From the UHGV virus genome UHGV-0187309: a stretch of 44,350 nt of DNA; one strand, given 5' to 3'. A program made the position numbers and the translations under genes. Origin of the DNA: a virus. Of the stretch, positions 1 to 28,582 are shown one piece after another; within the stretch, counting starts at the first letter, position 1; each line of letters begins with the position of its first letter. The notes under the pieces are model-generated. The model worked only from the letters and a program-made list of their open reading frames with translations. It was not told where the DNA came from and made no database searches.

Positions 1-344
1 TTACCTTTCTTAGAGATAACAGTGAGGACTCGACACTGCGATAATGATGCAGTTTTTAATCCTAAACCAAATCTTCCAAGGTCATTTGTAGCTCTTATAT
101 CTAATGGATTTCTGCTTCCATATTGCATAGCTTTATCAATTTCAGGTGCATCCATACCGTTACCATTATCTAGCACAGCTATGTAAGCATCACCGACAGG
201 GAAGAAAAATATATCTATATTCTCAGAGCAGGCAGCAATACTATTATCGATAATATCTGCTATTGCTGCATCTAACGTATAACCGATTGCCCTTGTAGAT
301 TCAATCAATGTGGGTGCATATGGCGGTAGTTCTATAGTGTGCAT
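1..344 (-). CDS. GHKL (Bergerat-fold, HATPase_c_3-like) ATPase, N-terminal fragment; gene continues past the left window edge
   Basis: Own reverse-strand translation from ATG 344..342: MHTIELPPYAPTLIESTRAIGYTLDAAIADIIDNSIAACSENIDIFFFPVGDAYIAVLDNGNGMDAPEIDKAMQYGSRNPLDIRATNDLGRFGLGLKTASLSQCRVLTVISKKG. GHKL N box (IIDNSIAA), G1 box (DNGNGM), G2 box (GRFGLGLK). GGAGGGAG RBS 5 nt upstream. Absent from the ORF track because no stop lies inside the window. Confidence 0.6.
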   Translation of the reverse strand, partial: MHTIELPPYAPTLIESTRAIGYTLDAAIADIIDNSIAACSENIDIFFFPVGDAYIAVLDNGNGMDAPEIDKAMQYGSRNPLDIRATNDLGRFGLGLKTASLSQCRVLTVISKKG

Positions 345-400
345 ATTTTCTCCCTCCAGTATAGATATAATTTGCGAACGGGTAAAATACCCCATAATCT

Positions 401-429
401 ACTATACCACAATCTGCTGATTTTTTCAA
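401..429 (-). promoter_or_regulatory. sigma70-type promoter for the GHKL ATPase gene
   Basis: Reverse strand reads TTGAAA (429..424), 17-nt spacer, TGgTATAGT (extended -10; hexamer 406..401), about 55 nt upstream of ATG 344. Confidence 0.45.
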
Positions 430-524
430 TACACGATCCGCACTTTTTCAGAAAAAAGTAGGTGTTTTGTTTCCTTTCATTTTGTAAAGAGTTACTTTTT
501 TCTCTTGACAAATCATGATAAGAT

Positions 525-574
525 GCGAAAAACTCTGTGCAAGCATCGGACATCAGTGTCCATTTGCACAGAGT
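525..574 (-). terminator. rho-independent terminator after the 608..1705 gene
   Basis: Perfect 11-bp stem ACTCTGTGCAA (532..542) / TTGCACAGAGT (564..574) with an inner GGACA/TGTCC stem, followed on the minus strand by TTTTTCGC. Confidence 0.5.
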
Positions 575-607
575 CTTATTCTATGATTTACTTTCTCTAC
601 GGACTTA

Positions 608-1705
608 TCACTCCGAATACTCTCTCGCCATCTCTTTTATCTTCTCAACCATCATATCGCTGATGCAGCTTCCGATCTTCTCTAAAGTGTCCTCGTCCAT
701 CAACCAGAAACCTTTCTTATTAAGGTGTGCATCAAGTATCTTATACATTTTCCACATATGCGGCTGATAACACTCTGGTATATCGCTGATGCAGGTCGGC
801 TCTATGTTTTCATCGGGATAAACGCCGCCATTGATCTTCAGCTTACCCTCGTTAGCGGCATTTACAAATAATATCGTCAGATCGTCTGTGAGCAATTTTG
901 CGAAGTAGTGGGCAAGCGCATACTCATCAATGGTGTGCGAATAGTAGTAAAGCGTTGCTTCAAGAAAATCCTCTAACTGATTTACTATCCCGCCCCATAC
1001 ATCTGTTGTCCAGTCGAGCATTTCCGGATGATAGCTGTCACCGCCGGAGCGAATCGTATAGCTGACATGGTTTGCGATTACTTCTGCGATAAACTCCTGC
1101 CAGAACCAGTAGCCTTCCTGCTTTCGGCGTTCACTGCTGTATCTGCAGCCGTCGATTGCTGCATCATATAAAGGAGAATCATCTATCAGACCGGGTTCAT
1201 TATAACGGTGCAGATCATCTACCTCTGCATTGATAGTGTAGAAATGCCCAAGTTCATGCCAGAAGAAATGTTCAAAATAAACACGCAGCTCGAAGTCGTC
1301 ATGCACAGGCAAGTCTGCCACAAGCTCCCTGCGAATCAGAATCGCATTGCCTTTCTCACCGTGTATGTATTCCATGATGGAGTCAGGCGGTTCCTCTGTA
1401 TGAGGACAGCCGATGCTTTTGATGATCTTCTTTCTTGTCCGGGAATAACTGCTTGCAGTTGAAGTATACACCGGCGGAAACGGAATGCCGAGATCAGGCA
1501 TGATCTGCTCAAACTGCATCTTTGCCATTTCAGCCCAGTAAAGAATCGTTGCTTCGGGTATCGGGCGCGGCTTTGGCAGTTCAGCAGGATGTGCGGTATC
1601 TTCGCCGTTAGTACGCTCGGCAAATTCAAGCATACTCTTTACAAAATCAAGCGGCAAGCCTTTTTCTTCTGCCAGCTTCTGTGCTTCGACTTCAAGTTCA
1701 TTCAT
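608..1705 (-). CDS. hypothetical protein with HExxH metallopeptidase-like motif
   Basis: 365-aa ORF. AAGGAG RBS 8 nt upstream of the ATG (reverse strand). The only recognisable motif is FFWHELGHFY (HExxH). Has its own promoter and terminator. Confidence 0.7.
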   Translation of the reverse strand: MNELEVEAQKLAEEKGLPLDFVKSMLEFAERTNGEDTAHPAELPKPRPIPEATILYWAEMAKMQFEQIMPDLGIPFPPVYTSTASSYSRTRKKIIKSIGCPHTEEPPDSIMEYIHGEKGNAILIRRELVADLPVHDDFELRVYFEHFFWHELGHFYTINAEVDDLHRYNEPGLIDDSPLYDAAIDGCRYSSERRKQEGYWFWQEFIAEVIANHVSYTIRSGGDSYHPEMLDWTTDVWGGIVNQLEDFLEATLYYYSHTIDEYALAHYFAKLLTDDLTILFVNAANEGKLKINGGVYPDENIEPTCISDIPECYQPHMWKMYKILDAHLNKKGFWLMDEDTLEKIGSCISDMMVEKIKEMAREYSE

Positions 1706-1746
1706 GCGCTTTACTCCTTGTAAAATAGTACAATAATTTATTTTTT

Positions 1747-1775
1747 ATTATAGCACAATTGCCGCCTGTTTTCAA
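1747..1775 (-). promoter_or_regulatory. sigma70-type promoter for the HExxH gene
   Basis: Reverse strand: TTGAAA (1775..1770), 17 nt, gTGcTATAAT (extended -10; hexamer 1752..1747). Confidence 0.5.
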
Positions 1776-1796
1776 GCCTTTAGAGAGCGTTTTCAT

Positions 1797-1843
1797 ATAA
1801 AAACTCAGGCTCTGTGAGAAGACACTATACCTCTCACAGAGCC
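1797..1843 (-). terminator. rho-independent terminator after the SRAP gene
   Basis: Perfect 12-bp stem GGCTCTGTGAGA (1808..1819) / TCTCACAGAGCC (1832..1843), 12-nt loop, followed on the minus strand by TGAGTTTTTA. Begins 9 nt after the stop at 1852. Confidence 0.55.
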
Positions 1844-1851
1844 TCTATTCA

Positions 1852-2487
1852 TTATACAGCCTTTTCCATCACTACCTCAGTCAAAGCCCTCTTGCATATC
1901 TCAGCAGGATTCCCGTTCGGCTTTATCCAGCTTTCAACGTCCTCTCTACTCAGTATCACCGGCATTCGGTCGTGGATGCTTCTCAGTTCCTCGGTTGCGT
2001 CCCGTGTGATTACCGCAAACACCGGGCAATTAACTCCGTTTCTCTCCTCGATCCTATACAACAGCCCAGCAAGCAGCGTAGATTCGGCTCCTTTCGGCTG
2101 TATCAGGTATTTATCGCCAACCTTCTTCTTTTTCCCGTCCGGACTCCTGAAATGCTCCCATTCAAAGTACCAACTGCTCGGAATTACGCATCTACTTCGG
2201 AACCATGAGTCCTTCCACATTTCCTTCTGGTCAGCCGTTTCGAGGCGGCAGTTCACGATTGGAGCATCGGTCGCGTCATGACTGAAACCCCAGAGCATCG
2301 GAAAAACTTCCATTCTTCCGTCCTTATTCGGTGCTAAAACCGCAGCAACATCAGTCGGACGCAGTTCACCGGACATAAACAGCGGTTTGCCGAGTTTTAC
2401 CATGATAGTATTCGCTAGCTCCAGTTTCTGTGCCCGTGTGATCAGCGGAGCGAACTGAGCAGGCTCTACATAGAAGCGTGTACACAT
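1852..2487 (-). CDS. SOS-response-associated peptidase (SRAP / YedK-HMCES family, abasic-site processing)
   Basis: 211 aa starting MCTRFYV (catalytic Cys2). Family landmarks NCRLET, WFRSRCVIPSSWYFEWEH, IHDRMPVIL. Confidence 0.85.
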   Translation of the reverse strand: MCTRFYVEPAQFAPLITRAQKLELANTIMVKLGKPLFMSGELRPTDVAAVLAPNKDGRMEVFPMLWGFSHDATDAPIVNCRLETADQKEMWKDSWFRSRCVIPSSWYFEWEHFRSPDGKKKKVGDKYLIQPKGAESTLLAGLLYRIEERNGVNCPVFAVITRDATEELRSIHDRMPVILSREDVESWIKPNGNPAEICKRALTEVVMEKAV

Positions 2488-2501
2488 AAGACCACGACCT
2501 T

Positions 2502-3059
2502 TCAGCCTTCGATCATTCTCAGCTTATAGTGTTTTCGGCAGAGTGCTGTATAACTCTCATTACCGCCGAGCTGTACCTGTTCTCCCTCTGTGACCATTTC
2601 ACCGTTCAGGAGTCTTGCATTGAAGTGCGCTCTTTTGCCGCACCAGCAGATGGTCTTGATCTGCTCAATATCGTCTGCAAGCTCCATGAGCCGCTGTGCG
2701 CCGGGAAACAGATGACTCTGGAAGTCTGTCCGCAGGCCGTAGCAGATAACTGTGATGCCATGAAAATCCACAAGATCACTGAGCTTGTCTATCATTTCAG
2801 GTGACAGGAACTGCACCTCGTCAACGATGATACAGTCATAATGCTCACCATTATAGTCAGCAAGGAAGTTTTCAGCAAACTCGCAGGGTTCTTCAAGTCC
2901 GATGCGGGATTTTAGGTTCTTCGCACCGTCCCTGTCCTCGCATCTCGGCTTCAGCAGAAGCACTTTTTTGTCTCTCTCATAGTAGTTATATCGAACCATA
3001 AGCGCATTGGCGGTCTTGGAGCTGCCCATTGCGCCGTATCTGAATATCAGTTTTGCCAT
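2502..3059 (-). CDS. tdk: thymidine kinase
   Basis: 185 aa. P-loop GAMGSSKT, DEVQFL, C-terminal zinc/lasso region CWCGKRA...LCRKHY. Confidence 0.92.
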   Translation of the reverse strand: MAKLIFRYGAMGSSKTANALMVRYNYYERDKKVLLLKPRCEDRDGAKNLKSRIGLEEPCEFAENFLADYNGEHYDCIIVDEVQFLSPEMIDKLSDLVDFHGITVICYGLRTDFQSHLFPGAQRLMELADDIEQIKTICWCGKRAHFNARLLNGEMVTEGEQVQLGGNESYTALCRKHYKLRMIEG

Positions 3060-3064
3060 CTGCC

Positions 3065-3937
3065 TTACTCCTCATCGTCCTCGTGCATGACTTCATATCG
3101 CTTGATATCTCTCTTGCTTGCAATGGAAGCGGGTTCAAGGATACCGAGAACGCGCCCGATCAGAGTGACATTGTCATATTCTGTGAATGTCATGGTATCA
3201 TACTTATCATTAAACGATACCAGACCTTCTTCCTCATATATCTTTATGTATGTACTGTTTCCAACCATGAAAGCGCCGACCTCATCGTATTGCAGCTCCG
3301 GACAGCCGGGATACTTCTCCACAAGAACAAGGTCGCCGTCATGATACTCAGGCTCCATACTGTCGCCGTTGACAGGAAACACAAGGTCTGCCTGCCGTAT
3401 TGCTGTGTTCGTATTCGGATACAGATAGATCGGTGTTCCGTTGTCCTCAAACTCCGCCCCGCCGTCAAAGCCTGCTGCAAGCCCCTTGTCGCAGAGTGTC
3501 AGTTTGATGATCTCCGGGAAGCTGCCGACAGTCTCTGCCGCTTCAAGCGAGGATAGCAGACTGTCCATTGCAAGCTGGTGCGGATACGACAGTCCACGGT
3601 ATCTCTCTACCATAGACTTTTCCTTATCAGTATAGGTATCTTGCTTGTTTTCGATGCCATATAGTTCATACAGCGTGATACCAAGTGCGTCACATAGCTT
3701 AGGAACAACGCTGAAATCCGGGCGGGTTCTTCCGTTCTCCCAGTTACTGATAGCATTTGAGGTCACGCCGATTTTTTCTGCAATCACTTTCTGATCTAAT
3801 TTTAGACGCTCCCTGTAGTATTTGATGCGACCGCCAACCGCGTGAGCGTCCTTACGGTGGGCAGGATCAGAGATGTTACTCTTAATATCCTTGCCTCCCT
3901 GTGAGACTGAGATATTCGGTTTCTTACGCTGTTTCAT
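3065..3937 (-). CDS. CI-like phage repressor (XRE HTH + S24/LexA-type autopeptidase)
   Basis: HTH IKYYRERLKLDQKVIAEKIGVTSNAISNWENGRTRPD; S24 motif FPVNGDSMEPEYHDGDLVLVEK. Start placed at the second ATG (3937) because GGAGAG lies 7 nt upstream; the track ORF extends to 3955. Confidence 0.85.
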   Translation of the reverse strand: MKQRKKPNISVSQGGKDIKSNISDPAHRKDAHAVGGRIKYYRERLKLDQKVIAEKIGVTSNAISNWENGRTRPDFSVVPKLCDALGITLYELYGIENKQDTYTDKEKSMVERYRGLSYPHQLAMDSLLSSLEAAETVGSFPEIIKLTLCDKGLAAGFDGGAEFEDNGTPIYLYPNTNTAIRQADLVFPVNGDSMEPEYHDGDLVLVEKYPGCPELQYDEVGAFMVGNSTYIKIYEEEGLVSFNDKYDTMTFTEYDNVTLIGRVLGILEPASIASKRDIKRYEVMHEDDEE

Positions 3938-4097
3938 TACAAAGCTCTCCTTCAAGAATGTATGGGATAGTCAATCCTCAAAACGAACAAATATTCTTAT
4001 TGAAATCTGTGCAACCCTACAAAGTTTATCAAAGACTTTTCAACGCTGAAAACGTTAGAAATGCGAAATTTGGCGTAGGCATTGCATCTTTGATCAC

Positions 4098-4126
4098 ATT
4101 ATAGCACACAATCGGTGTTTTGTCAA
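4098..4126 (-). promoter_or_regulatory. consensus sigma70 promoter for the repressor operon
   Basis: Reverse strand: TTGACA (4126..4121), 17 nt, gTGcTATAAT (hexamer 4103..4098). Confidence 0.55.
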
Positions 4127-4131
4127 TACAA

Positions 4132-4147
4132 AATTGCACTTGCAATT
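4132..4147. promoter_or_regulatory. candidate operator: perfect palindrome AATTGCA-ct-TGCAATT
   Basis: 16-bp dyad overlapping the -35 of the rightward promoter and lying 6 bp from the -35 of the leftward one. A related half-site, ATTGCA, lies at about 4081..4086. Confidence 0.35.
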
Positions 4148-4168
4148 CGTTTGACGGTGTGATATAAT
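4140..4168 (+). promoter_or_regulatory. sigma70 promoter for the rightward (lytic-side) operon
   Basis: TTGCAA (4140..4145), 17 nt, TGaTATAAT (extended -10; hexamer 4163..4168). About 200-nt leader before ATG 4370. Confidence 0.5.
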
Positions 4169-4369
4169 AGCAATGTCGGTATTCCGCCTACAGGAAAATG
4201 AGACCGAAGGCTGGTGCAGTGTGTCCGTCTTAAGGTGTGTGACAGGACAGACTGCCGGTCAGAGTACCGACAACTTCGCCATCAACCCACTTCGCCACGA
4301 TAGATATACAGAACAATAGAATGGAGCTAATGTTGGAAATACCATAAGTTGCGAAACAGGAGGGCGTAA

Positions 4370-6298
4370 ATGACTATATATCTTGATAGAGGACCGTTTC
4401 TCACCATTCCCGACAAGCTGCATTCGGGGCAGTACAGAGTGATCCGCAACCCCGACTGGCACGGAGTACTGCCGGAGATCGTGTCCTTCACCGATTTTCT
4501 CAAATGGAATTACACACTGGAGTATGGTCAGTATATCCGCAAATTGCACTACTACCACCAGCTTCCGCTGCCGTGGGTCGTTCCACAGGATGCCGAGATA
4601 GAAACTGTCATCATCGAGGAAGGCAGATATGACCGCATTGATCACAATTCCTTTGATATGTATGTGATATGCGATGTCGTGTTCGAGATGAACGGCTGCC
4701 GGCAGTGCCAGAAGTATATCGTACACGGCTTTTACTGCTCTTACGGCGGTTCAGACTTTCTGTGCGGTGCGGAGCTCTACAATGGTCAGTTTATCCGGCT
4801 GAACAATCCCTTAGATGAGTTTCTGGTTCCCATCCTTTCAAAGAAAGAATTTGCAAGCATTGCACAAGCAATCATCGACCACTACTATTCATACAAATCG
4901 AATTATCCCTGCCGCATCAATACTGCTTCAATTGCAAAGGCAATGGGTCACGATATAAAGTATGCCAGACTGTCAAAAAACGGAAATGTCAAGTCCAAGC
5001 TGATCCTGGACAAGCGGGATACGACCGTCTATGATAAGGAATACAAAGCTGTCAAAATGCGGATCGACAGTCCTACGATCCTTGTGGACGAGTCATTGGA
5101 GGAGGATGAAGCGCAGAACGCCATTATTCATGAGTGCGTTCACGCTTACCTTCACAACCTCTTCTATGAGCTGCAGAGCTACTATCGGAAAATGGTCGGC
5201 AGGAAGATGCCGGAGTTCAATGACTACTTCTATTCCAAGACGCAGCGTAGCTGCCTGAAATGGATGGAAACACAGGCAAATGCCATCCCACGCTTTATTC
5301 AGATGCCGGAGGAGCAGGCATCCGATGTCATCCTGAACTTCTTCGAGCGACTCCCCGGAGAGCCTGACTGGGACGATTACAGAGAACTGATCGACCTTGT
5401 GAAATGGAAGTTCGGAGTATCCCGCAATGCTGCGAAGAAGCGTATCATTGAGCTTGGCTGGCCGGAGGTGCGCGGTGTGTATGTCTACAACACCACAGGA
5501 TATGTTGAGGACTACGATGTAGAGCTAAGATTCCCGCAGGACTATACCTATACACTGTCATTCCGCCAAATCTCTGATGTGTTTGCATCCTGCGAGACCT
5601 TCGCAGAGCTTGTCCGTTCCAAGAAGTTCATCTATCTGGACGGTCATGTTGTGATCAACAGCGACAGGTATATCCGCAAGGAACACGGCTTAGCTATGGG
5701 CTTGACAGAGTATGCTAGACACCACATGGCAGAGTGCTGTCTGGATTTCAAGCGTATCTACGCAGAATTCGACTACAGCTATACCTATGGCGAGCTACAC
5801 AAGGATGACCTGACCGAGATCACGGCCGAAAACCGTTCGTTCAGCGATGAACAGCGAAAGAAGATCCGCATGGCAATGTATGAGATCACAGAAGAAAACT
5901 ATAAACTGACCGTTCCTTCAGATGTCAACGAATTCGGCAAGGCGGTGCGTTTCCATATGGAGAGATGCGGTCTCACCTCGGATCTGGTTGCAGACCGCAG
6001 CGGCATGGGTGTGAACACTGTCAATAAGATGCGCAGTGGCAAGAGAGTGAAGCTCGAAACAGTGCTAGCTTTTTGTGTCGCTTTGGAGCTTGAAGAGTCG
6101 TTCCGCATTGACCTTATGCAGAAAGCGAAGGTTGATTATGATATGAGCAATCCTGCCCATCGGCTCTATGTCACGATCTTTGAGCTGATGCCGAAGGCAA
6201 ATGTCTTTCAGATCAACGATCTGCTGAAGGCAGAAGGCTTTACGCCGTGGACGAGGGACTGCGAGGAAAAGAAGCGGTATGCTAAGAAAAGTATGTAA
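4370..6298 (+). CDS. ImmA/IrrE (M78)-like HExxH metallopeptidase domain fused to a C-terminal XRE-type HTH
   Basis: 642 aa, AGGAGGG RBS. IIHECVHAYLH in the middle. C-terminal HTH FGKAVRFHMERCGLTSDLVADRSGMGVNTVNKMRSGKRVKLETVLAFCVAL. N-terminal ~230 aa unrecognised. Confidence 0.65.
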   Translation: MTIYLDRGPFLTIPDKLHSGQYRVIRNPDWHGVLPEIVSFTDFLKWNYTLEYGQYIRKLHYYHQLPLPWVVPQDAEIETVIIEEGRYDRIDHNSFDMYVICDVVFEMNGCRQCQKYIVHGFYCSYGGSDFLCGAELYNGQFIRLNNPLDEFLVPILSKKEFASIAQAIIDHYYSYKSNYPCRINTASIAKAMGHDIKYARLSKNGNVKSKLILDKRDTTVYDKEYKAVKMRIDSPTILVDESLEEDEAQNAIIHECVHAYLHNLFYELQSYYRKMVGRKMPEFNDYFYSKTQRSCLKWMETQANAIPRFIQMPEEQASDVILNFFERLPGEPDWDDYRELIDLVKWKFGVSRNAAKKRIIELGWPEVRGVYVYNTTGYVEDYDVELRFPQDYTYTLSFRQISDVFASCETFAELVRSKKFIYLDGHVVINSDRYIRKEHGLAMGLTEYARHHMAECCLDFKRIYAEFDYSYTYGELHKDDLTEITAENRSFSDEQRKKIRMAMYEITEENYKLTVPSDVNEFGKAVRFHMERCGLTSDLVADRSGMGVNTVNKMRSGKRVKLETVLAFCVALELEESFRIDLMQKAKVDYDMSNPAHRLYVTIFELMPKANVFQINDLLKAEGFTPWTRDCEEKKRYAKKSM

Positions 6299-6311
6299 TA
6301 ACGGCATTTTC

Positions 6312-6337
6312 AGGAGGCTTTCGAGCCTCCTTTTTTT
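6312..6337 (+). terminator. rho-independent terminator
   Basis: AGGAGGC tttcga GCCTCCT followed by TTTTTT, 14 nt after the stop at 6298. Confidence 0.7.
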
Positions 6338-6555
6338 ATGCCCTGAAATATTTTCATGAAGCCCCCAGAAAAAATGGGGGCGATTTGCGTTTTTGAAATA
6401 GTTTAGAGACAGAATGTTCATAGAATATCCATTTAATTTAGATGATATGAACAAGTGAAGATGATATATCAAAGTTGAGATAAGCACAGTGCATAAAAAG
6501 CAGCCCCCATTTTTTATGTATGTAAAAGAAGATTCGGATATGTTATGATATAGAC

Positions 6556-6721
6556 ACGGTCAAGGACAGGCACCACCTTCCAAGACTGAAACACCACAAT
6601 GCCGGATGCATACGGCAGAGGATGTTCATATGATATCTGAACAGAATGCCATAGGTATACCCTGTGGTCGGAAGCCGATGTCATATGTCTACTCTGTGCT
6701 ATGCATCCGGCTATTTTTTTT
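6556..6721 (+). ncRNA. candidate small RNA (extended -10 promoter to long-hairpin terminator)
   Basis: TGtTATGAT at 6541..6549. About 110-nt imperfect hairpin closed by GCCGGATGCATA (6601..6612) / TATGCATCCGGC (6700..6711), with inner CAGAG/CTCTG and CATATGA/TCATATG pairs, then TATTTTTTTT. No plausible ORF inside (longest is 13 codons). Confidence 0.3.
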
Positions 6722-6946
6722 GCCGCGGCATTCGGAGCATGGCAATTAGATCATTACATTTGTTAGTCAGGGCGCGCACTGGCGGACAGATGCTCATAGC
6801 GGAAATAACATCACGATTTGGAGTCTGTATAGACTGACAAGGTGTATTTCGTGTGGACATCGTCCCCTGCGTGCCTTTTTCTCTGGGACAGCAGTCGCGT
6901 TATGGGCATCTGCCGCTTGGTGTGTTCCTTGCAGAAAGGAACGATT

Positions 6947-7669
6947 ATGGAAAACGCAAATGTTCAGAATGCTGCCGCTATCACCGATAAGACCACCCTC
7001 GGCGAACTGCTTGCAATGCTTGACCTCGCTGATAAGGCAGGCAAGATGCCGACACCGAGAGAACTGTTTGAGACTGCCGGTTCGCCGATAGCCGATATGA
7101 ATGGCTGCACTCTCTTCAGCAACGGCTTCGCCATCTATCAGAATGTCACTGGGCGCACTGTTGTCTGGCTGCCGTACTGCAAGAGCTTCACCTATTACTT
7201 CGGCAAGCTCCGTGATTCCGAGAAAGACACGCTGACAGAGACCTATGAGCTGCCGGATGGATTTCTGGAAACACAGCCGTGGGTGATCGCAGTAACACTG
7301 ATCGGCGACCATCGTGTGGAGGCAAACAGCATGAACCGCACCGGCAGCCGCAAGGATACCACAGATTATGACAGCGCCGATAACGGCGATAAAGACGGTG
7401 ATGCAGAGGAGGCTTTGGCAGATCCGTATCGCAGGGCATTCAACTGGTATGACGGACGCATGGGCGAGAATCCGCAGGATGCCGTGGAGCGCAGAGAGAC
7501 ACGCGAGGAGATGCTTGCAGACATGACGGACAAGCAGCGTGAAGCCTTTATTATGTACTTCAGGGATGGTATGACGCAGGAAGAGATTGCTTCATATATA
7601 GGGGTAAGCCGTGATTCCATAAATGACAGGCTTGAAGGTGCTTTGAAAAAAGCAAAAAAATATTTTTAG
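6947..7669 (+). CDS. sigma-70 region-4-like HTH protein (possible phage sigma/transcription factor)
   Basis: Start at Met36 of the track ORF (AAAGGAA RBS). C-terminus TDKQREAFIMYFRDGMTQEEIASYIGVSRDSINDRLEGALKKAKK resembles sigma-70 region 4. N-terminal 190 aa unrecognised. Confidence 0.55.
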   Translation: MENANVQNAAAITDKTTLGELLAMLDLADKAGKMPTPRELFETAGSPIADMNGCTLFSNGFAIYQNVTGRTVVWLPYCKSFTYYFGKLRDSEKDTLTETYELPDGFLETQPWVIAVTLIGDHRVEANSMNRTGSRKDTTDYDSADNGDKDGDAEEALADPYRRAFNWYDGRMGENPQDAVERRETREEMLADMTDKQREAFIMYFRDGMTQEEIASYIGVSRDSINDRLEGALKKAKKYF

Positions 7670-7759
7670 GATACCCACAAAAAGACCTCTCCCACGACAG
7701 TATATGAGAGGGCTTGAAAAGAAACCAAACCGCAAGCGGCTGCAAAGCCCTCGCAGCCG
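7669..7759 (+). promoter_or_regulatory. copy 1 of a two-copy structured element (box + conserved-loop hairpin + second hairpin)
   Basis: GGATACCCACAAAA, then CCTCTC-ccacgacagtatat-GAGAGG, then CAAACC..AAGCGG and CGGCTGC/GCAGCCG (7737..7759). The first 44 nt are 40/44 identical to 21496..21539. Confidence 0.6.
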
Positions 7760-7806
7760 AACCATTATTACATCGGTCGAAAGACCTGAACAGAAAGGAA
7801 ATGCTT

Positions 7807-8169
7807 ATGCCTATGGAAAACAGAGTCCCGAAAAACCGCTACAACGGCGGTGCCGCAACCGATGCCGACAAGCAGGACAAGCCCGATGTGCTGAAGATGA
7901 TCGAAACGGCAATGGACAAGCGTGCGGCGGGCATCGCACAGACGGTCACGGATATGTTCCGTTTCATGTCGATGGCATCTGCCATGCTCCCGAATATGGA
8001 GATGGATGTCGGTGTGTTCCGTCTGAAGATCGACGATGACGGCATCTTTTTCGAGATCAACCATCCGTTCCGCAAGCGCAAGCAGCGTGATATCTCCAAT
8101 GACTGCTGTGCCGAGGAGCCGGACAACTATGATGATGACGAGGAGGGACTGATTTATGACGGAGACTGA
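7807..8169 (+). CDS. hypothetical protein (acidic C-terminus)
   Basis: ORF-track frame. ATG 7807 lies 6 nt after AAAGGAA; alternative ATGs at 7801 and 7813. Confidence 0.55.
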   Translation: MPMENRVPKNRYNGGAATDADKQDKPDVLKMIETAMDKRAAGIAQTVTDMFRFMSMASAMLPNMEMDVGVFRLKIDDDGIFFEINHPFRKRKQRDISNDCCAEEPDNYDDDEEGLIYDGD

Positions 8170-8650
8170 AAAGAAATTCCCTGTGCCGGGACCGCTTCCC
8201 GTAGACGCAAAGAAGCTGATCGATGGGCTTGGCACGATCTTCGGCGGCGTGATCCAGCTTCTGGCAGCAATGGAGCCGAACATGGCAAAGGAGCTGGCGG
8301 ACATGGCGATCAACGGTGTGCCAAAGGAGACTGCGCCGGAGGAAATCAATCCGGACGATTTCGAGGAGATCATCACCGCTGACGATCTGCCGTGGGATAC
8401 AGAGCCGGAGCAGCCCGAAGAGCCGAAACCTGCGGAAAAGCCCAAACCGAAGAAGGCGGCAAAGAGGGCGGAGCCTGCATCGGAGCTGACCGCTGATGAC
8501 CTCATCCGCGTGGTGACGCAGAAGATCAAGCAGAACCGTGCCAACAAGGACAAAGTGCTGGCGCTGCTGAAATCCTACGGTGCGGCAAAAGTCAGCGATA
8601 TACCTGCGGACAAGTACGAAGCGTTTCTCACTGACCTGTCGCAGCTCTGA
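8156..8650 (+). CDS. hypothetical protein (Pro/Glu/Lys-rich linker)
   Basis: 164 aa, GAGGAGGG RBS. Overlaps the upstream gene by 14 nt, consistent with translational coupling. Confidence 0.65.
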   Translation: MTETEKKFPVPGPLPVDAKKLIDGLGTIFGGVIQLLAAMEPNMAKELADMAINGVPKETAPEEINPDDFEEIITADDLPWDTEPEQPEEPKPAEKPKPKKAAKRAEPASELTADDLIRVVTQKIKQNRANKDKVLALLKSYGAAKVSDIPADKYEAFLTDLSQL

Positions 8651-8664
8651 TCGGAGGTGGCACG

Positions 8665-9912
8665 ATGCCGGATGTTCATGCACTTCTGAGTGCATCCAGT
8701 TCCAAGCAATGGCTTCACTGTCCGCCGTCCGTCCGCCTGCAGGAGAACTTTCCGAACGAGAGCTCCGTGTATGCCGCCGAGGGAACATTCGCTCATGAGG
8801 TCTGCGAGTACAAGGTCCGCAAGTATCTGAAGGAGCGTGTGAAACGTCCGCAGTCCGAGGAATATGACACCGAGGAAATCGAGCAGATCACAGATGTGTA
8901 TGCGGAGTTCGTGATCTCCATCATTGAGCAGATGAAGGAGAACGGCTGTGAGTCGCTTGCTTTTGTTGAGGAGCGTGTGGACTACAGCCACATTGCCCCT
9001 TCCGGCTTTGGCACGGCAGATATGCTCATCATCGGTAAGGACGAGCAGGGACGCGGAATCCTTCATGTATGCGATTTCAAGACGGGTGCAGGCGTGTTTG
9101 TGGATGCAGACCACAACAGCCAGATGATGCTCTATGCGATCGGAGCTTTAGCCGCCTACGGCTTTTTGTATGATATTGAGATCGTGCGTATGAGCATCAT
9201 TCAGCCTCGTCTGGATAATATCAGCACATTCGAGTGCAGCAGAGCCGAGCTTGAGGAATGGGGCGAGAGCATCAAGCCCATTGCGAAACTTGCCTACGAG
9301 GGCAAGGGCGAACAAAGCCCCGGCGACTGGTGTCGGTTCTGCCGTGCAAAGCCTGTTTGCAAAGCGTGTGCCAATGAAGCACTGGCACTCTGCCGTGAGG
9401 ATTTCCTTGACCTCGATGCCGGAGCATTCGATGATACTGCGGAGGAAAGCGATATGACCGCACCCTACGAAGCGGATATACAGACTGCCGTATTCAAGCA
9501 GCCGGGACTGATTCCTATCAGCGAACTTGCGGAGATCCTGCCGACTCTGAACCGCATCAGCTCTTGGATCGAGGCGGTATTCGCATTCGTATCCTCCGAG
9601 GCGATCAATCACGGTGTACCGATTCCCGGCTATAAGGTGGTCGAAGGGCGCAGCAAGCGTGTATTCACAGATACAAAAGCTGTGGTCGATACCGCTGTTC
9701 AGAACGGGTACACCGACCTTTACAAGCAGACGCTCATCACGCTGACGGAATTTGAAAAGATGATGGGCAAGAAAAAGTTCAACGAGCTGCTCGGTGAGTA
9801 TGTCGCCAAGCCACCCGGAAAGCTGGCACTTGTGCCGGAGAGCGATCCGAGAGAACCCGTTGATCTCACAACACCCGGTCAGGAATTTGAAGTTCTCTCT
9901 GATGATGAGTGA
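8665..9912 (+). CDS. DUF2800-type PD-(D/E)XK nuclease with Cys cluster
   Basis: N-terminus LSASSSKQWLHCPPSVRLQE...AAEGTFAHE. DFK core (HVCDFKTG). CRFCRAKPVCKAC cluster. Canonical position upstream of DUF2815 and the DNA polymerase. Confidence 0.8.
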   Translation: MPDVHALLSASSSKQWLHCPPSVRLQENFPNESSVYAAEGTFAHEVCEYKVRKYLKERVKRPQSEEYDTEEIEQITDVYAEFVISIIEQMKENGCESLAFVEERVDYSHIAPSGFGTADMLIIGKDEQGRGILHVCDFKTGAGVFVDADHNSQMMLYAIGALAAYGFLYDIEIVRMSIIQPRLDNISTFECSRAELEEWGESIKPIAKLAYEGKGEQSPGDWCRFCRAKPVCKACANEALALCREDFLDLDAGAFDDTAEESDMTAPYEADIQTAVFKQPGLIPISELAEILPTLNRISSWIEAVFAFVSSEAINHGVPIPGYKVVEGRSKRVFTDTKAVVDTAVQNGYTDLYKQTLITLTEFEKMMGKKKFNELLGEYVAKPPGKLALVPESDPREPVDLTTPGQEFEVLSDDE

Positions 9913-9985
9913 GGATCATACAATAATGCCGCAATTATTCTGTTTGGTGAATACGCAAAATTGAATGAAATATAGGAGGTATACT

Positions 9986-10561
9986 ATGGCAAACACAACA
10001 CCCGCGACTAAAGTGGTTATTCCCTGTCGCATTTCTTTTGCGAACATCTGGGAGCCAAAATCAATTAATGGCAGCGAAGAGAAGTATTCCGTTTCCCTAC
10101 TGATCCCGAAGGATGACAAGGCAACGCTCGCCAAGATCAAGAAGGCAATTGAGGCGGCAAAGGAAGCGGCGAAGGAGAAGAAGTGGGGCGGCAAGATCCC
10201 GCCGAACCTCAAGCTGCCGATGCATGACGGCGACATCGACCGTCCTGATGACGAGAACTATGCCGGTCACTTCTTCTTCAATGCCACGAGCAAGGATGCA
10301 CCGCAGATCGTTGACCGCCATGTGCAGCCGATTCTCGATCCGATGGAGTGCGGCAGCGGTGACTATTGCAATGTCAGCGTGAACTTCTACGGTTTTGCAG
10401 CATCCGGCAACAAGGGCATCGCAGCAGGACTCCAGAACATCCAGCTTGTCCGCCACGGTGAGCGTCTTGCGGGCAGACCGACCGCAGCATCCGACTTCGT
10501 TGAGGTCGAGGGCGATGACACGGATGATCTCGCAGACGATGATCTGGATTTCCTGAACTGA
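9986..10561 (+). CDS. DUF2815-type phage ssDNA-binding protein
   Basis: AGGAGG RBS. ATKVVIPCRISFANIWEPKS...EKYSVSLLIPKDDKATLAKIKKAIEAAKE. Acidic C-terminal tail DDLADDDLDFLN. Confidence 0.75.
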   Translation: MANTTPATKVVIPCRISFANIWEPKSINGSEEKYSVSLLIPKDDKATLAKIKKAIEAAKEAAKEKKWGGKIPPNLKLPMHDGDIDRPDDENYAGHFFFNATSKDAPQIVDRHVQPILDPMECGSGDYCNVSVNFYGFAASGNKGIAAGLQNIQLVRHGERLAGRPTAASDFVEVEGDDTDDLADDDLDFLN

Positions 10562-10601
10562 CGCATAAGGGAGGCTTGCCTCCCTGTACATACACAAACA
10601 G

Positions 10602-13487
10602 GTGGTGATTTTATTGAGCAGACGTGTACTTTCCATCGACTTAGAGACCTATTCGGATGTAGACCTCCCGAACTGCGGTGTGTACCGCTATGTTGAGGGA
10701 GATTTCCATATCCTGCTGTTCGCATATGCATTTGACGATGAGGAGACAAAATGCGTGGATATGGCCTGCGGGGAGCAGCTCCCGGCAGAGGTCGTGGATG
10801 CGCTGCAGGATGACAGTATTATCAAATCGGCATGGAACGCACAGTTTGAGCGTACCTGCCTTTCAAAATATCTCGGTACGCAGATTTCTCCGGACTCGTG
10901 GCAATGCACGATGGTATGGGCGGCATCGCTTTCACTTCCGCTGAAGCTGGCAACGGCTGCACAGGCACTGAAAACTGCACAGCAGAAGGACGCTGTCGGT
11001 GAGCGTCTTATCCGTTATTTCTCTCTGCCCTGTAAGCCCACCAAAGCAAACGGCGGCAGAACAAGAAATCTGCCGGAACACGCCCCCGAAGACTGGAAGC
11101 TGTTCAAAAGCTACTGCATACAGGACGTGGAAACCGAGCGGGATATCCGCCGCAGGCTTGAAAAGTTCCCCCTGCTCCCGCAGGAATGGGACTACTACCA
11201 CATGGATCAGCGGATCAATGATCGCGGTATCCTGATCGACAAAGAGCTTGTGCAGCAGGCTATTATCTGCAATATGGCAATGTCCGAAGAAATGACAAAA
11301 CGTGCATACGCTCTGACAGGACTTGAAAATCCGAATTCCGTATCACAGCTCAAGGGATGGCTTGAGGAGCGTGGCATTGAGGTGGATTCCCTCGGCAAAA
11401 AGAATGTCGCTTCTCTTATCACAGACCTCGACAGGCACAGCGCAGACGGTGAGGCTCTGGATATGATGAAGCTGCGGTTGCAGATGGCAAAGTCCTCTGT
11501 GAAAAAGTATCAGGCGGCAGAGAGATACATCTGTCAGGACGGCAGGGCGCACGGACTGTTTCAGTTTTCCGGAGCTCAGCGAACACAGCGCTGGTGTCTT
11601 ACCGGCGATCATGAAATACTGACAGATAAAGGCTGGCTCAGGCTTGATAATTGGCAGGGCGGTAAGATTGCTTGTTGGAATCCTAATCAGGAAATGGTCT
11701 CGTTCCAGAAAGCGAACGTATTGTGCTTTGAATATGACGGTCCTATCTACCGCTATGAGGACAAACGGATCGATCAGATCAGCACGCCGGATCACAAAAT
11801 GCGTGTAAAGAAACGGTATAACGGCGAGTGGACGGATGACACTGTTGGCAATATGGAAAAGTATCGTCCTTCTATTCCGTTTACCGGACGCAGACAAACG
11901 ATGCCCGGCTTGGAGCACGCAGAACTGAGGGTACTGGTGATGACGCAGGCTGACGGCAGCTATAAAGAAGATGGAATGCTCTGCTTCCATTTCAAGAAGA
12001 AAAGGAAAATAGAACGGTGCAAACATCTGCTCAGACAGGCGGGCATTTATTTCACAGTGAATGAATGCAGGACAGATGGAACAACGCAGATCAAGATTCC
12101 TTCCCGTGAGCAGCCGATGTATCTAAGAATGTTTCATAACAAGACATTTGGAATGTGGCTTCTCGATGAAAGCCCGGATGTTTTCTTTGATGAGCTTCGG
12201 TATTGGGACGGATCGCAAAGCGCCAAAAACAGTATCCAATATACCACAACGAACAAAGTGAATGCCGATATTGTTCAGGCTTTTGCTCATACAAGTGGTC
12301 GCTGTGCAAAAATGAAAACGGTCATCCGGGATAAAGAACACCCGAATTGGAGCGATGCATACTATCTCGATATATGGCTCACTCCGAAAAACTGTCATGA
12401 AATCAGAGTGAAGCCGACTATCTCGCAATTCAGCGGCAAAATATACTGTGCTGAAACCCCAACCGGATACTTCCTTGTAAGACGTAATGGTAAAGTGTGG
12501 GTAACAGGAAACAGCGGGCGCGGCATTCAATTACAGAACCTGCCGCAGAACCACATCTCTACCCTCGATGAAGCAAGAGAACTTGTCAAAATGGGCTGCT
12601 TTGACATGATCGAAGCACTGTACGGCAATACGCCGGATATCCTGTCACAGCTTATCCGCACGATGCTCATTCCGAAGGACGGCTGTGAATTTATCGTGGC
12701 AGACTTCTCCGCCATTGAAGCGAGAGTACTTGCGTGGCTTGCCGGAGAACAGTGGCGGCTCGATGCCTTCAAGCGTGGCGAGGATATTTACTGTGCATCC
12801 GCATCGCAAATGTTCGGTGTTCCGGTCGTGAAGCACGGCATCAATGGAGAACTGCGGCAGAAAGGCAAGGTCGCTGAGCTTGCCTGTGGTTACGGAGGTG
12901 GCAGCGGTGCGCTGATCTCTATGGGTGCGCTGGATATGGGACTGAAAGAGGATGAACTTCCCGACATCATTTCAAGCTGGCGCGATGCAAACCCGGAGAT
13001 CGTGAAATTCTGGTATGCCGTGGAGAAAGCGGCGATCGAAACAGTCAAGGACCACGCGGAAAGAACGGTCGGCAGGATCGGTTTTCAGTTCTCTGCAAAT
13101 ACACTGTGGATCGTGCTGCCGTCCGGGCGCAGACTTGCCTACATCAAGCCGAGGTTACAGCCGAACCGTTTCGGGCGTATGGCGCTGACCTTTGAAGGAC
13201 TCGGTGCAAACAACAAATGGACGCGCGGTGAGACATACAGCGGCAAGCTGACGGAGAACATCACACAGGCGACCGCCCGTGACCTGCTTGCAGAGGCAAT
13301 GCACCGAATGGAGCTTGCGGGACTTGACATAGTCGGTCATGTGCATGATGAGGTCATTTTGGAAGTGCCGAAAAGACAATATACGGTCGATGATGTGTGC
13401 AATATCATGAATCAAAATCCGAGATGGGCAGACGGTCTGCCCTTATCATCTGCCGGATATACCGGCAATTACTACTTCAAAGACTGA
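10602..13487 (+). CDS. family A DNA polymerase (3'-5' exo + pol) interrupted by an intein
   Basis: Exo motif LSIDLETYS. Pol motif A IVADFSAIEARVLAWLAG, motif B RQKGKVAELACGYGGG, motif C GHVHDEVILEV. The real start may be TTG 10614 (AGGTGGTGA RBS). Confidence 0.9.
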   Translation: MVILLSRRVLSIDLETYSDVDLPNCGVYRYVEGDFHILLFAYAFDDEETKCVDMACGEQLPAEVVDALQDDSIIKSAWNAQFERTCLSKYLGTQISPDSWQCTMVWAASLSLPLKLATAAQALKTAQQKDAVGERLIRYFSLPCKPTKANGGRTRNLPEHAPEDWKLFKSYCIQDVETERDIRRRLEKFPLLPQEWDYYHMDQRINDRGILIDKELVQQAIICNMAMSEEMTKRAYALTGLENPNSVSQLKGWLEERGIEVDSLGKKNVASLITDLDRHSADGEALDMMKLRLQMAKSSVKKYQAAERYICQDGRAHGLFQFSGAQRTQRWCLTGDHEILTDKGWLRLDNWQGGKIACWNPNQEMVSFQKANVLCFEYDGPIYRYEDKRIDQISTPDHKMRVKKRYNGEWTDDTVGNMEKYRPSIPFTGRRQTMPGLEHAELRVLVMTQADGSYKEDGMLCFHFKKKRKIERCKHLLRQAGIYFTVNECRTDGTTQIKIPSREQPMYLRMFHNKTFGMWLLDESPDVFFDELRYWDGSQSAKNSIQYTTTNKVNADIVQAFAHTSGRCAKMKTVIRDKEHPNWSDAYYLDIWLTPKNCHEIRVKPTISQFSGKIYCAETPTGYFLVRRNGKVWVTGNSGRGIQLQNLPQNHISTLDEARELVKMGCFDMIEALYGNTPDILSQLIRTMLIPKDGCEFIVADFSAIEARVLAWLAGEQWRLDAFKRGEDIYCASASQMFGVPVVKHGINGELRQKGKVAELACGYGGGSGALISMGALDMGLKEDELPDIISSWRDANPEIVKFWYAVEKAAIETVKDHAERTVGRIGFQFSANTLWIVLPSGRRLAYIKPRLQPNRFGRMALTFEGLGANNKWTRGETYSGKLTENITQATARDLLAEAMHRMELAGLDIVGHVHDEVILEVPKRQYTVDDVCNIMNQNPRWADGLPLSSAGYTGNYYFKD
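11595..12512 (+). mobile_element. 306-aa intein with LAGLIDADG-like homing endonuclease domain inside the DNA polymerase
   Basis: Extein junctions RTQRW|CLTGDHEILTDKGW ... GKVWVTGN|SGRGIQLQNLPQN. Block B STPDHKM. DOD-like motifs LRVLVMTQADGSY and FFDELRYWDGSQ. Removing it restores the contiguous RW-SGRGIQLQNLP polymerase motif. Confidence 0.8.
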
Positions 13488-22932: not shown

Positions 22933-23389
22933 TGCGATACAGCTTGACAGCGGTGCAGAGGTCATGTACGGCAGCGATCAGATCTATGACACCTACCCCT
23001 GCCGCTTTCCGACTGTCGAGTTCCAGCTCATGGCAACGGATGCACTTGCGGAGGTCGCAGACCGCATCCGAATGGAGAAAGGCTATCTCCCGATGCATCC
23101 GAGGGACGGGCGCACGGACGATGTTGACAATGACGGCTGGTACGACTTTTATATCGGGATTAGCAAGCTCCCCAGCGATCATAAGGAATGCAAACTTGAC
23201 AGCAGCATTAGTTTCGTGGTCGTCAATTCAGATTCCGATGACAACGAGGATATGTACAGCATTGACCTGACTGAAACAGAGCAGGCGTATGTGTATGAAA
23301 TACTGAACCGGCAATGCCGGAGATATCACGGGAAGGACTGTGCCACGCTTCTGGCAGAGTCTGAAAAGGAGCTGATGGATACAGCATGA
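22904..23389 (+). CDS. hypothetical protein
   Basis: AGGAGGA RBS before ATG 22904. The stop overlaps the nrdD start (ATGA). Confidence 0.6.
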   Translation: MTLTENFIRDAIQLDSGAEVMYGSDQIYDTYPCRFPTVEFQLMATDALAEVADRIRMEKGYLPMHPRDGRTDDVDNDGWYDFYIGISKLPSDHKECKLDSSISFVVVNSDSDDNEDMYSIDLTETEQAYVYEILNRQCRRYHGKDCATLLAESEKELMDTA

Positions 23390-25991: not shown

Positions 25992-26305
25992 GAGCCAGAC
26001 TGAAACCGCCGGGAGATGCTGTCCGCTGCGATGCCTGCGGATGTGCCTTTGTGCCGGAGCCGAAAATGCAGCGTGAGGGAGAGATCGAATACAGCTTCCT
26101 CAACTGTGATTACTGTGGCAAAGCGTATATCGTGTCTGTGACCGATGCCGCACTCCGCCGGAGCATCCGCAAGTACCGGACGCTTGCCGAAAAGCTGAAG
26201 GGCAAGCCGTTGAGTGAAGATACGCTCCGTGAGGTCACGGCGCTGAAGGATGCGAACACAAAAAGAGCCGCAGAGCTGCGGCAGATGTATATTCGGGAGG
26301 GATGA
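25988..26305 (+). CDS. hypothetical zinc-ribbon protein
   Basis: CDACGC...17 aa...CDYCGK. ATGA overlap with nrdG. Confidence 0.6.
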   Translation: MRARLKPPGDAVRCDACGCAFVPEPKMQREGEIEYSFLNCDYCGKAYIVSVTDAALRRSIRKYRTLAEKLKGKPLSEDTLREVTALKDANTKRAAELRQMYIREG

Positions 26306-26306
26306 G

Positions 26307-27578: not shown

Positions 27579-28350
27579 TGTGAAGTGTGTATTATATCAC
27601 GACAACTTCCAAAACTTCAAAGGCTACAGCATCCCGAAAGCGCAGCTCGTCATCGCTGACATCCCGTACAACATCGGCGGCGATTTTTACGCAAGCCGCC
27701 CCGACTGGTATGTGGACGGTGACAATCAGAACGGCGAAAGCAGCAAAGCACATAAGGCGGCATTCCATACAGATTACAGCTTTAACATTGCTGAATACTT
27801 CGCCTTCTGCAACCGACTGCTCAAAAAAGAGCCGCCAAAAGGTGAAAAGGATGCGCCGTGCATGATCGTGTTCTGTGCCTTTCAGCAGATACCGGAAGTC
27901 ATCCGGCAGGCGGAGAAATACGGCTTCAAGAAGTATCAGTTTTTGTGTTTTATGAAGAATTACAGTCCGCAGGTGTTGAAGGCGAACATGAGGATCGTGG
28001 GCGCAACGGAATACGCTCTGGTGCTGTACCGGGGCAAGCTGCCGAAATTCCGAAACACGGATGAGAATGGCAAACACCACATGATCTTCGACCATTTTGA
28101 CTGGATGCGGGACGGCAAGGATATCCCGAAGATACATCCTTCGCAGAAGCCGGTAAATCTCCTGAAACGGCTGATCGGGATATTTACCGACGAGGGTGAT
28201 GTGGTCATCGATCCCTGCGCCGGTTCCGGCTCAACGCTGCGTGCGGCGAGGGAGCTTGGCAGACACAGCTACGGCTTTGAAGTCAGCCGGGATTTTTATA
28301 ATAAAGCCTGTGAACTGATGCTTGGGGAGGATACCGATGACGAAGCATGA
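27565..28350 (+). CDS. DNA methyltransferase (beta-class N6A/N4C type)
   Basis: Motif IV variant IADIPYNIG, then motif I VIDPCAGSGSTLRAA. Start uncertain (ATG 27565, TTG 27571 or GTG 27580). Confidence 0.78.
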   Translation: MQLSDVKCVLYHDNFQNFKGYSIPKAQLVIADIPYNIGGDFYASRPDWYVDGDNQNGESSKAHKAAFHTDYSFNIAEYFAFCNRLLKKEPPKGEKDAPCMIVFCAFQQIPEVIRQAEKYGFKKYQFLCFMKNYSPQVLKANMRIVGATEYALVLYRGKLPKFRNTDENGKHHMIFDHFDWMRDGKDIPKIHPSQKPVNLLKRLIGIFTDEGDVVIDPCAGSGSTLRAARELGRHSYGFEVSRDFYNKACELMLGEDTDDEA

Positions 28351-28582
28351 ATGTGCGGTCGTGACCGCTTACACAGAGATTTCTATGCTCAAGGGCGACG
28401 ATCTGAAATATCTGTATGACTATCTTTCCGGCTTTATCGGCAGACCGGTGTATACACACGAGATTTCTGCTGTGGTGATGGCTTACAGAGAGCAGATCAG
28501 GGAGGACTTCCTCGATCTGTGCAGGAACGCAAAGGAGGCGGATGATGGATCAGAAACACTTGACTCTCGGCAGCTTATTTGA
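28337..28582 (+). CDS. hypothetical protein
   Basis: GGGGAGGA RBS. 81 aa. Overlaps both neighbouring MTase genes. Confidence 0.5.
   Translation: MTKHECAVVTAYTEISMLKGDDLKYLYDYLSGFIGRPVYTHEISAVVMAYREQIREDFLDLCRNAKEADDGSETLDSRQLI

Follow-up and report, generated by a model that had tools for sequence, protein, structure and literature searches.

A methyltransferase-linked Mza-like operon and a predicted zincin peptidase gene in a putative cargo slot of a temperate phage of Clostridia

Introduction

The anti-phage system mzaABCDE reportedly goes back to Gao et al. 2020. In Escherichia coli this system protects against T4 without growth arrest, its MzaD protein cuts DNA in vitro, and it does without a methyltransferase, restricting T4 whether the phage DNA carries cytosine (C), hydroxymethylcytosine (hmC) or glucosylated hydroxymethylcytosine (ghmC) (bioRxiv 10.1101/2022.06.16.496414). 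Iyer, Abhiman and Aravind (2008, PMC2292703) placed paraMORC GHKL ATPases in predicted restriction-modification (R-M) operons with superfamily 2 (SF2) helicases, restriction endonuclease (RE)-fold nucleases, Dcm and AIPR proteins, and proposed that DNA is looped from the recognition to the cleavage site; the paraMORC2 family is mainly Gram-positive (PMC2292703). The same gene set is described as a putative system reminiscent of mzaABCDE by Miller et al. (PMC9523054), which also gives MzaA of the canonical system as a sigma factor. Here we analysed UHGV-0187309, a 44,350-nt stretch of viral DNA (referred to as a whole as the window), one end of which holds the beginning of a five-gene operon related to mzaBCDE and ending in a Dcm gene, and beside it a gene for a 365-residue protein with an HExxH motif.

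The GHKL ATPase gene opens a five-gene Mza-like operon

An earlier note, made from the letters of the window alone, had pointed to two open reading frames (ORFs) at its left end, for a GHKL ATPase and for the HExxH protein, and had read them as accessory units of a possible prophage-encoded defence. Both ORFs are present as described (Table 1), the first running off the end of the window. The 114 residues of the ATPase that lie in the window matched HATPase_c_3 (E-value 1.6e-25) and the MzaB profiles of PADLOC (1e-35) and NCBIfam (2.5e-37). An exact-match look-up of the 365-residue protein led to an 82,189-bp ENA contig (ERZ27262483:k119_75777), of whose first 44,350 bp the window is the reverse complement. 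The stretch that we fetched from this contig, L001, had 0 mismatches over 11,705 bp to the reverse complement of window 1..11705, indicating that the truncation of the GHKL gene is an artefact.

This leftward extension, a check that the earlier note had itself proposed, revealed that the full MzaB-like gene encodes 486 residues and is the first of five genes, being followed by MzaC-, MzaD- and MzaE-like partners and a C5-cytosine methyltransferase (Dcm). Neighbouring genes overlap by 4-8 nt or lie 12 nt apart, and the start of Dcm overlaps the MzaE stop by 8 nt. The unit seen from the window has its own promoter, as the note held, but it is an operon and not a single gene. In PADLOC, proposed as a further check, the full-length MzaB-like protein matched MzaB with an E-value of 2e-92 (profile positions 7-490 of 500), its partners matched MzaC (9e-121), MzaD (3e-20) and MzaE (9e-74), and the fifth protein matched MTase_II (2e-127). 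NCBIfam likewise recognized MzaB to MzaE, with E-values from 3e-110 to 9e-30; the best of these was the MzaB match, which ran end to end (profile positions 1-478 of 480) and bears out the note's reading of the GHKL gene. The Dcm protein scored 177.6 bits against TIGR00675 of NCBIfam, exceeding the cutoff of 100.65. The catalytic motifs are intact in MzaB (DNGxGM, GRFGLGLK), MzaC (GKT, DDEAD), MzaD (D...EIK) and Dcm (FAGAGG, PPCQ, ENV, QTFPD, GNAVPP), and 67 homologues share the MzaB motifs A-I-A-D-I-I-D-N-S, DNGNGM and GRFGLGLK. We conclude that the operon is almost certainly Mza-like and Dcm-linked.

A survey with the AIPR protein as query and one genome per species gave 76 loci, about 65 of which keep the order MzaB-C-D-E-Dcm (in Ruminococcus, Lachnospiraceae, Oscillospiraceae, Streptococcus, Paenibacillus and others); among the loci whose cassette is complete, about 60 include a linked Dcm gene. 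The cassette was also found in four IMG/VR viral contigs. As a separate observation, two chromosomal loci (L066 and L071, in Peribacillus and Cytobacillus) have a second, divergent pair of AIPR (30% identity) and Dcm (36-37%) genes directly upstream of the MzaB-E cassette, which suggests tandem or composite systems.

The operon is a discrete AT-rich module

The earlier note had remarked on the AT-richness of the GHKL fragment and taken it as a sign of recent acquisition, of which the first was confirmed and the second is supported. The fragment has a GC content of 0.38 and a GC content at third codon positions (GC3) of 0.25, against a mean GC3 of 0.61 (range 0.55-0.68) in the phage genes; over the cassette the GC3 values are 0.31-0.36, as compared with 0.50-0.68 in the flanking genes on either side. 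The HExxH gene, with a GC3 of 0.51, is phage-like and not AT-rich.

In the closest viral contig (L087/L097) the repressor is 27% identical to that of the window, the thymidine kinase (tdk) 89% and the SOS-response-associated peptidase (SRAP) 74%, and the cassette follows directly, with proteins 95-99% identical to those of L001. That tdk and SRAP are kept beside so diverged a repressor points to mosaic exchange inside the lysogeny operon. The DNA shared with L087 is a block of 9,007 bp with 91.5% identity that starts 42 bp before the -35 hexamer of the operon promoter and ends exactly at the Dcm stop, and the AT-rich GC3 island coincides with this block, supporting recent acquisition. On the SRAP side, homology to L087 ends at window 1835 and restarts at window 471, with only 98 bp between these points in L087. 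From these two breaks we recognize two modules: the HExxH unit, which is a 1.36-kb indel, and the Mza-Dcm operon, a discrete 9-kb module with its own promoter. We found no direct repeats flanking the 9-kb cassette.

The cassette occupies a variable interval downstream of the SRAP gene

The window contains a partial phage with PolA, primase, NrdD, several DNA methyltransferases and the large terminase subunit, which lies at the right end of the window where the contig also ends. A megablast search of window positions 1-20000 against GenBank phages gave a 61-bp match only. Relatives in IMG/VR that we anchored on SRAP share the backbone PolA-ssb-DUF2800-sigma-p642-cI-(tdk)-SRAP and differ after SRAP, where BREX, type I R-M and type II R-M genes take the position of the Mza-Dcm cassette (Table 1). 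This agrees with the earlier note, which had named prophage ends near the repressor as hotspots for defence genes. In one further relative (L110) another cargo cassette is followed by a low-molecular-weight (LMW) phosphatase 86% identical to that of L001 and then by p73, NYN and DSPc, and in L007 the order is HExxH, a 644-residue protein, p73, NYN and integrase. The tail of L001 (p74, LMW phosphatase and p37) matches the distal backbone of L110, L095 and L007, and in the latter two this backbone ends in a tyrosine integrase. The cassette is therefore bracketed by phage-lineage genes on either side, and it is very probably carried on the phage; by analogy with these relatives, an integrase is predicted at the distal end of this contig's prophage. 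A scan for a tRNA or Rfam feature marking an attachment site found none in the window, L001, L087, L095 or L007.

Two other cassettes in these relatives deserve mention in their own right. The cargo of L110, made up of four genes (917, 472, 493 and 411 residues), is a candidate for another defence system. In L087, the Mza-Dcm cassette has downstream of it a 667-residue protein that resembles a polymorphic toxin, with a PT-HINT domain and a weakly RelA/SpoT-like C-terminus, and then an HD_4 protein; this part is either further cargo or host flank.

The HExxH protein belongs to a family with a predicted zincin fold

No match to the 365-residue protein was obtained in Pfam, PADLOC, PHROGs or NCBIfam, and in particular no Pfam profile of the ImmA/IrrE (Peptidase_M78) or SprT-like type matched at an E-value of 0.01 or less; Pfam found no domain in 10 remote family members either. 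A tblastn search against INPHARED phages and PLSDB plasmids returned nothing, and a profile search of the PDB with the family alignment gave only spurious matches to designed repeat proteins through the string 'GHxYAIN'. With Foldseek there was nothing significant in the PDB or BFVD, the weak SprT-like and IrrE matches in BFVD having E-values above 0.5. The protein has more than 150 close homologues, and its family comprises 257 cluster representatives at an E-value of 1e-3 or less among 1.84 billion proteins. Invariant in the alignment are W149-H150-E151-x-G153-H154, E112 and Q196/G198/Y199/W202, with E204 and E208 nearly so. H150, E151 and H154 together with E204 or E208 form a candidate metal site, and the protein shows an HExxH motif on a helix, a candidate third metal ligand and a predicted zincin fold. 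From this modelled fold and site, it is somewhat likely to be an active zinc-dependent peptidase.

As judged from the sequence searches, the family is rare and is found on prophages and integrative and conjugative elements (ICEs) of Clostridia. Its genes often stand next to those for S24 and WYL regulators, SRAP and IMS polymerases (Table 1), and no conserved partner gene emerged across the contexts examined. The gene was missing from all of the approximately 80 other Mza-like loci examined, and we accordingly rejected the protein as an MzaA or other Mza partner. A separate observation concerns a 642-residue protein encoded divergently from the repressor in the window, which has a weak IrrE/Peptidase_M78 match (HECVH) and a C-terminal helix-turn-helix (HTH) and matches PHROG 4031 (unknown function); distant relatives of it (22-27% identity) adjoin the repressor in L003, L004, L006, L007 and L098, all of which carry a member of the 365-residue HExxH family.

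Promoters, terminators and other cis elements

The HExxH and GHKL genes had each been assigned a promoter of their own in the earlier note, and both assignments hold above shuffle expectation: sites with at least 10/12 matches plus the TG of an extended -10 number four in window 1..4500, all of them intergenic, while dinucleotide shuffles gave a mean of 0.076 and none of 500 reached four. The Mza-Dcm promoter is kept in L087 (TTGAAA-17-TATAAT), and L011 has an analogous TTGACA/TATAAT. The terminator that closes the SRAP operon was recovered by the scan with a strong fold. The one proposed for the HExxH gene is present (fold of -25.3 kcal/mol, z = -2.9) and plausible as a terminator, if weaker than that of the SRAP operon; its long loop caused a strict terminator scan to miss it. 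An AT-rich inverted repeat lies directly upstream of the -35 hexamer of the Mza promoter and encloses the left homology edge of the cassette (471); it may represent an operator or the scar of a recombination event. A comparison of the cI/p642 intergenic region with the two cargo promoters for operator-like repeats found nothing in common beyond the extended -10 string ATTGTGnTATAAT, and this gives no evidence for repressor control of the cargo promoters.

Other genes of the phage

In the lysogeny operon of the window the S24/HTH repressor is co-transcribed with tdk and SRAP, with intergenic gaps of 5 and 14 nt, which is an unusual arrangement. The large subunit of an NrdD-like anaerobic ribonucleotide reductase fits an anaerobic Clostridia host. 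Three DNA methyltransferase genes in a row (a ParB-methyltransferase fusion of 442 residues and proteins of 316 and 867 residues) belong to the early/metabolic region; the Dcm carried as cargo is a further one. Beyond them are two genes of the amidoligase family (PHROG 2443; 302 and 314 residues), the second being overlapped by a long antisense ORF that is probably spurious. With 888 residues the large terminase subunit is longer than usual, and its match to PHROG 9 is split in two; an insertion or an intein may be present in it. The structural genes are outside the contig, past its end.

Table 1. Positions and descriptions of features in the window, in its extension L001 and in related loci. 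Positions are those of the window unless a locus is named.
Feature	Location	Strand	Basis or remark
MzaB-like GHKL (paraMORC-type) ATPase, first 114 codons	1..344	-	ATG at 344; ORF exits window end
MzaB ribosome-binding site GGAGGG	351..356	-	6 nt upstream of ATG 344; kept in L087
Mza-Dcm operon promoter, sigma-70-type	401..429	-	TTGAAA-17-TATAGT with extended -10 TG, 10/12 matches
AT-rich 11-bp inverted repeat AGAAAAAAGTA / TACTTTTTTCT, 32-nt spacer	450..503	.	k-mer search
1.36-kb indel relative to L087	471..1835	-	HExxH promoter, gene and terminator
Probable intrinsic terminator of HExxH gene	525..574	-	14-bp stem with inner hairpin, then UUUUU
365-residue cytoplasmic HExxH protein (HELGH)	608..1705	-	predicted zincin (gluzincin-like) fold; unannotated family restricted to mobile elements
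HExxH ribosome-binding site AGGAG	8 nt before ATG 1705	-	sequence
HExxH gene promoter	1747..1775	-	TTGAAA-17-TATAAT with extended -10 TG, 11/12 matches
Intrinsic terminator closing cI-tdk-SRAP operon	1807..1844	-	scan call; fold -30.2 kcal/mol, z = -7.2
Lysogeny operon cI-tdk-SRAP	1852..3955	-	HTH + S24 repressor 3065..3955, thymidine kinase 2502..3059, SRAP 1852..2487; Pfam
642-residue protein	4370..6298	+	PHROG 4031
NrdD-like anaerobic ribonucleotide reductase, large subunit	23386..25527	+	PHROG 487, E-value 1.6e-205
Three DNA methyltransferase genes	26250..31145	+	
Two amidoligase-family genes	32090..34372	+	PHROG 2443
Long antisense ORF	33347..34702		probably spurious
Large terminase subunit	40371..43037	+	PHROG 9
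Full MzaB-like gene	L001 11362-12822		486 residues
MzaD-like PD-(D/E)XK nuclease	L001		310 residues; Pfam DUF4420
MzaE-like AIPR protein	L001		693 residues; Pfam AIPR
C5-cytosine methyltransferase (Dcm)	L001		550 residues; Pfam DNA_methylase
Cargo after SRAP	L095, L096		Dcm + NgoMIV type II R-M, then p74-like, NYN, DSPc, tyrosine integrase on opposite strand
Cargo after SRAP	L092, L093		type I HsdM
Cargo after SRAP	L091		two methyltransferases + REase-like protein
Cargo after SRAP	L094		WYL, BrxP, BrxC (BREX)
Four-gene cassette in cargo slot	L110 2998-9935		candidate further defence system
667-residue PT-HINT protein, then HD_4 protein	L087 17395-20063		downstream of Mza-Dcm cassette
HExxH family member	L003-L006		downstream of WYL regulator, near serine recombinases
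HExxH family member	L007		between cI/Y-polymerase module and integrase
HExxH family member	L008-L010		beside topoisomerase III/DUF3945, ICE-like element
HExxH family member	L098		adjoins S24 repressor, phage of same lineage
HExxH family member	L101-L105		adjoins Abi_2, ClpX zinc-finger protein, IMS, HNH genes

Discussion

Taken as a whole, we consider it likely that the left end of the window opens a cargo slot. Such a slot, transcribed in the direction of the repressor, would start with window 1..1851, and the temperate phage would be one of Clostridia from gut or rumen. The slot's proximal border would be the cI-tdk-SRAP operon and its distal border the LMW phosphatase-p73-NYN-DSPc block, ended in relatives by the tyrosine integrase, and it would hold two independently acquired transcription units, the 9-kb AT-rich operon and the 1.36-kb HExxH unit. 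The operon is a member, very probably phage-borne, of a computationally defined class, which is akin to the validated mzaABCDE system without being its orthologue. In the mechanism that we propose for it, Dcm would mark the DNA of the host and of the prophage, and the other four proteins (ATPase, NTPase, nuclease and AIPR) would bind, loop or translocate on unmarked incoming DNA and then cut it, so that the lysogen would resist superinfection. We infer expression in the lysogen, methylation-based self/non-self discrimination and a protective phenotype of the operon, and by analogy with the predicted paraMORC operons we lean towards a mechanism of the R-M type.

Several observations weigh against this reading. 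All four Mza proteins scored far under the NCBIfam equivalog cutoffs (369 bits against 850 for MzaB, 496 against 1500 for MzaC, 104 against 420 for MzaD and 322 against 1050 for MzaE), which makes them distant relatives of the tested Mza system and not its orthologues. MzaA was matched neither by the upstream 365-residue protein nor by any other protein scanned against PADLOC. In motif I of the MzaB-like family (A-[IV]-A-D-I-I-D-N-S) Asp replaces the usual catalytic Glu family-wide across the 67 homologues, and from this sequence ATP hydrolysis may be slow or regulatory. The canonical system works without a methyltransferase and restricts modified and unmodified T4 alike, so that the R-M logic is drawn from gene linkage, and the literature that could be searched yielded no experiment with the Dcm-linked variant. 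Finally, the integrase and att site of this contig are outside the DNA examined (window and L001), and an integrase was seen only in the relatives L095 and L007.

The last of these points is one of three in favour of the view that the Mza-Dcm cassette, perhaps with the HExxH gene, is host chromosome or another island beside the prophage, the window edge then lying near the true prophage end. In addition, the end of the window falls within MzaB, as it would if a provirus caller took the change in composition for a boundary, and the cassette occurs in many genomes without this phage's backbone genes nearby (L011-L086). We nevertheless consider this view quite improbable, as the genes on either side of the cassette have phage-like GC3, the second viral contig has the same cassette directly after tdk-SRAP in spite of its diverged repressor, the LMW phosphatase and p37 past Dcm belong to the LMW phosphatase-p73-NYN-DSPc-integrase backbone of related phage contigs, and in relatives this position, inside the integrase, is taken by other defence systems. 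The outcome by which the earlier note would have had its claim refuted, a GHKL gene with a housekeeping function as MutL or a histidine kinase, can be practically dismissed: the MutL models match only the N-terminus, over about 50-100 residues (E-values around 1e-5, ranging from 6e-06 to 5e-03), and HATPase_c matches with an E-value of 7e-04, below the Pfam cutoff, as compared with the end-to-end MzaB alignment. A more substantial challenge to the R-M-type mechanism is that the operon defends in another way, as a modification-dependent or abortive-infection (Abi) module, with Dcm serving another role such as shielding progeny from other R-M systems. The behaviour of the canonical system, which restricts T4 with C, hmC or ghmC DNA, would fit this, as would the additional match of MzaE to AbiU (E-value 6e-24; AIPR is Abi-related) and the presence of at least three other DNA methyltransferases in the phage. 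We regard it as unlikely, though with less conviction than for the two preceding views, since Dcm is linked in about 60 of the complete cassettes and its start overlaps the MzaE stop in L001, since E. coli cells with mzaABCDE show no growth arrest on infection, contrary to Abi, and since Iyer et al. read such operons as R-M systems.

For the HExxH protein, the position of its gene directly upstream of MzaB on the same strand would fit a role in the Mza-like system, as its regulator or sensor or in place of MzaA. We give this very little credence: the gene is missing from other Mza-like loci, including the nearly identical cassette of L087, it has its own promoter and terminator, its unit is a discrete indel with phage-like GC3, and elsewhere the family stands by WYL/S24 regulators, topoisomerase III, Y-family polymerase or Abi_2 and never by Mza genes. 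The note's idea of a prophage-encoded defence thus stood for the GHKL part, which belongs to the Mza-like operon, but is unproven for the HExxH part, which is an independent insertion. We take the protein to be a predicted lysogen-expressed peptidase in conflict between mobile element and host, outside the Mza-like system. As a conflict protease it would cleave either a protein of an incoming phage or rival (a single-gene defence) or a defence or regulator protein of the host (counter-defence, or an ImmA/IrrE-like switch); examples of possible targets are defence proteins, the regulator of a rival element and DNA-protein adducts linked to SRAP/Y-polymerase. The predicted zincin fold, the invariant HExxH with a downstream Glu-bearing helix, the strong promoter of its own and the restriction of the family to prophages and ICE-like elements, in whose accessory regions it typically lies near S24/WYL repressors and in their orientation, argue for such a role. 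The empty profile searches and the lack of a conserved partner gene argue against it, and the function is read from sequence and a predicted fold, which fit defence and counter-defence alike; on balance we place this role just short of probable. Doubtful, in our view, is the conjunction of two larger claims, that the 365-residue protein founds an undescribed zincin peptidase family, limited to ICEs and temperate phages of Clostridia from gut and rumen and acting as a lysogen conflict protease, and that a widespread lineage of gut phages exchanges defence systems in the SRAP-to-integrase interval, a hotspot that moves a complete methyltransferase-linked Mza-like system between hosts.

If the slot is as we describe it, BREX, type I R-M, type II R-M and Mza-like systems swap there, which makes it practical for mining new defence and counter-defence genes, the 365-residue zincin-fold protein being one candidate. 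The Mza-Dcm operon is a natural test case for R-M logic in Dcm-linked Mza-like systems, which has been predicted since 2008. The edge of the window, which is probably a boundary set by a provirus caller, cuts a predicted phage-borne defence operon, probably due to the GC drop.

The locus can be set beside several known systems. It differs from mzaABCDE in having no MzaA and in having a C5-cytosine methyltransferase as fifth gene, and in its Firmicute host and probable carriage by a temperate phage, the mzaABCDE system being that of an enterobacterium. It resembles the paraMORC R-M operons (PMC2292703) in combining a GHKL + S5-type ATPase with a helicase-like NTPase, an RE-fold nuclease, a Dcm methylase and AIPR; those operons were defined by computational prediction, and we liken the present one to the class as a whole and not to one paraMORC family. 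The 'putative transcriptional regulator' tied to one related system described in the literature is absent here. In its fixed backbone position, with differing defence systems among relatives, the slot is like the P2/P4 defence hotspots (Rousset et al. 2022, PMC9122126), from which it differs in belonging to a PolA/primase/NrdD phage lineage of Clostridia and in lying between cI-tdk-SRAP and the NYN-DSPc-integrase block. The HExxH family, for its part, is like the ImmA/IrrE M78, SprT-like and ArdC protease domains in its HExxH on a helix, its predicted zincin-type fold and the location of its genes on mobile elements near repressors.

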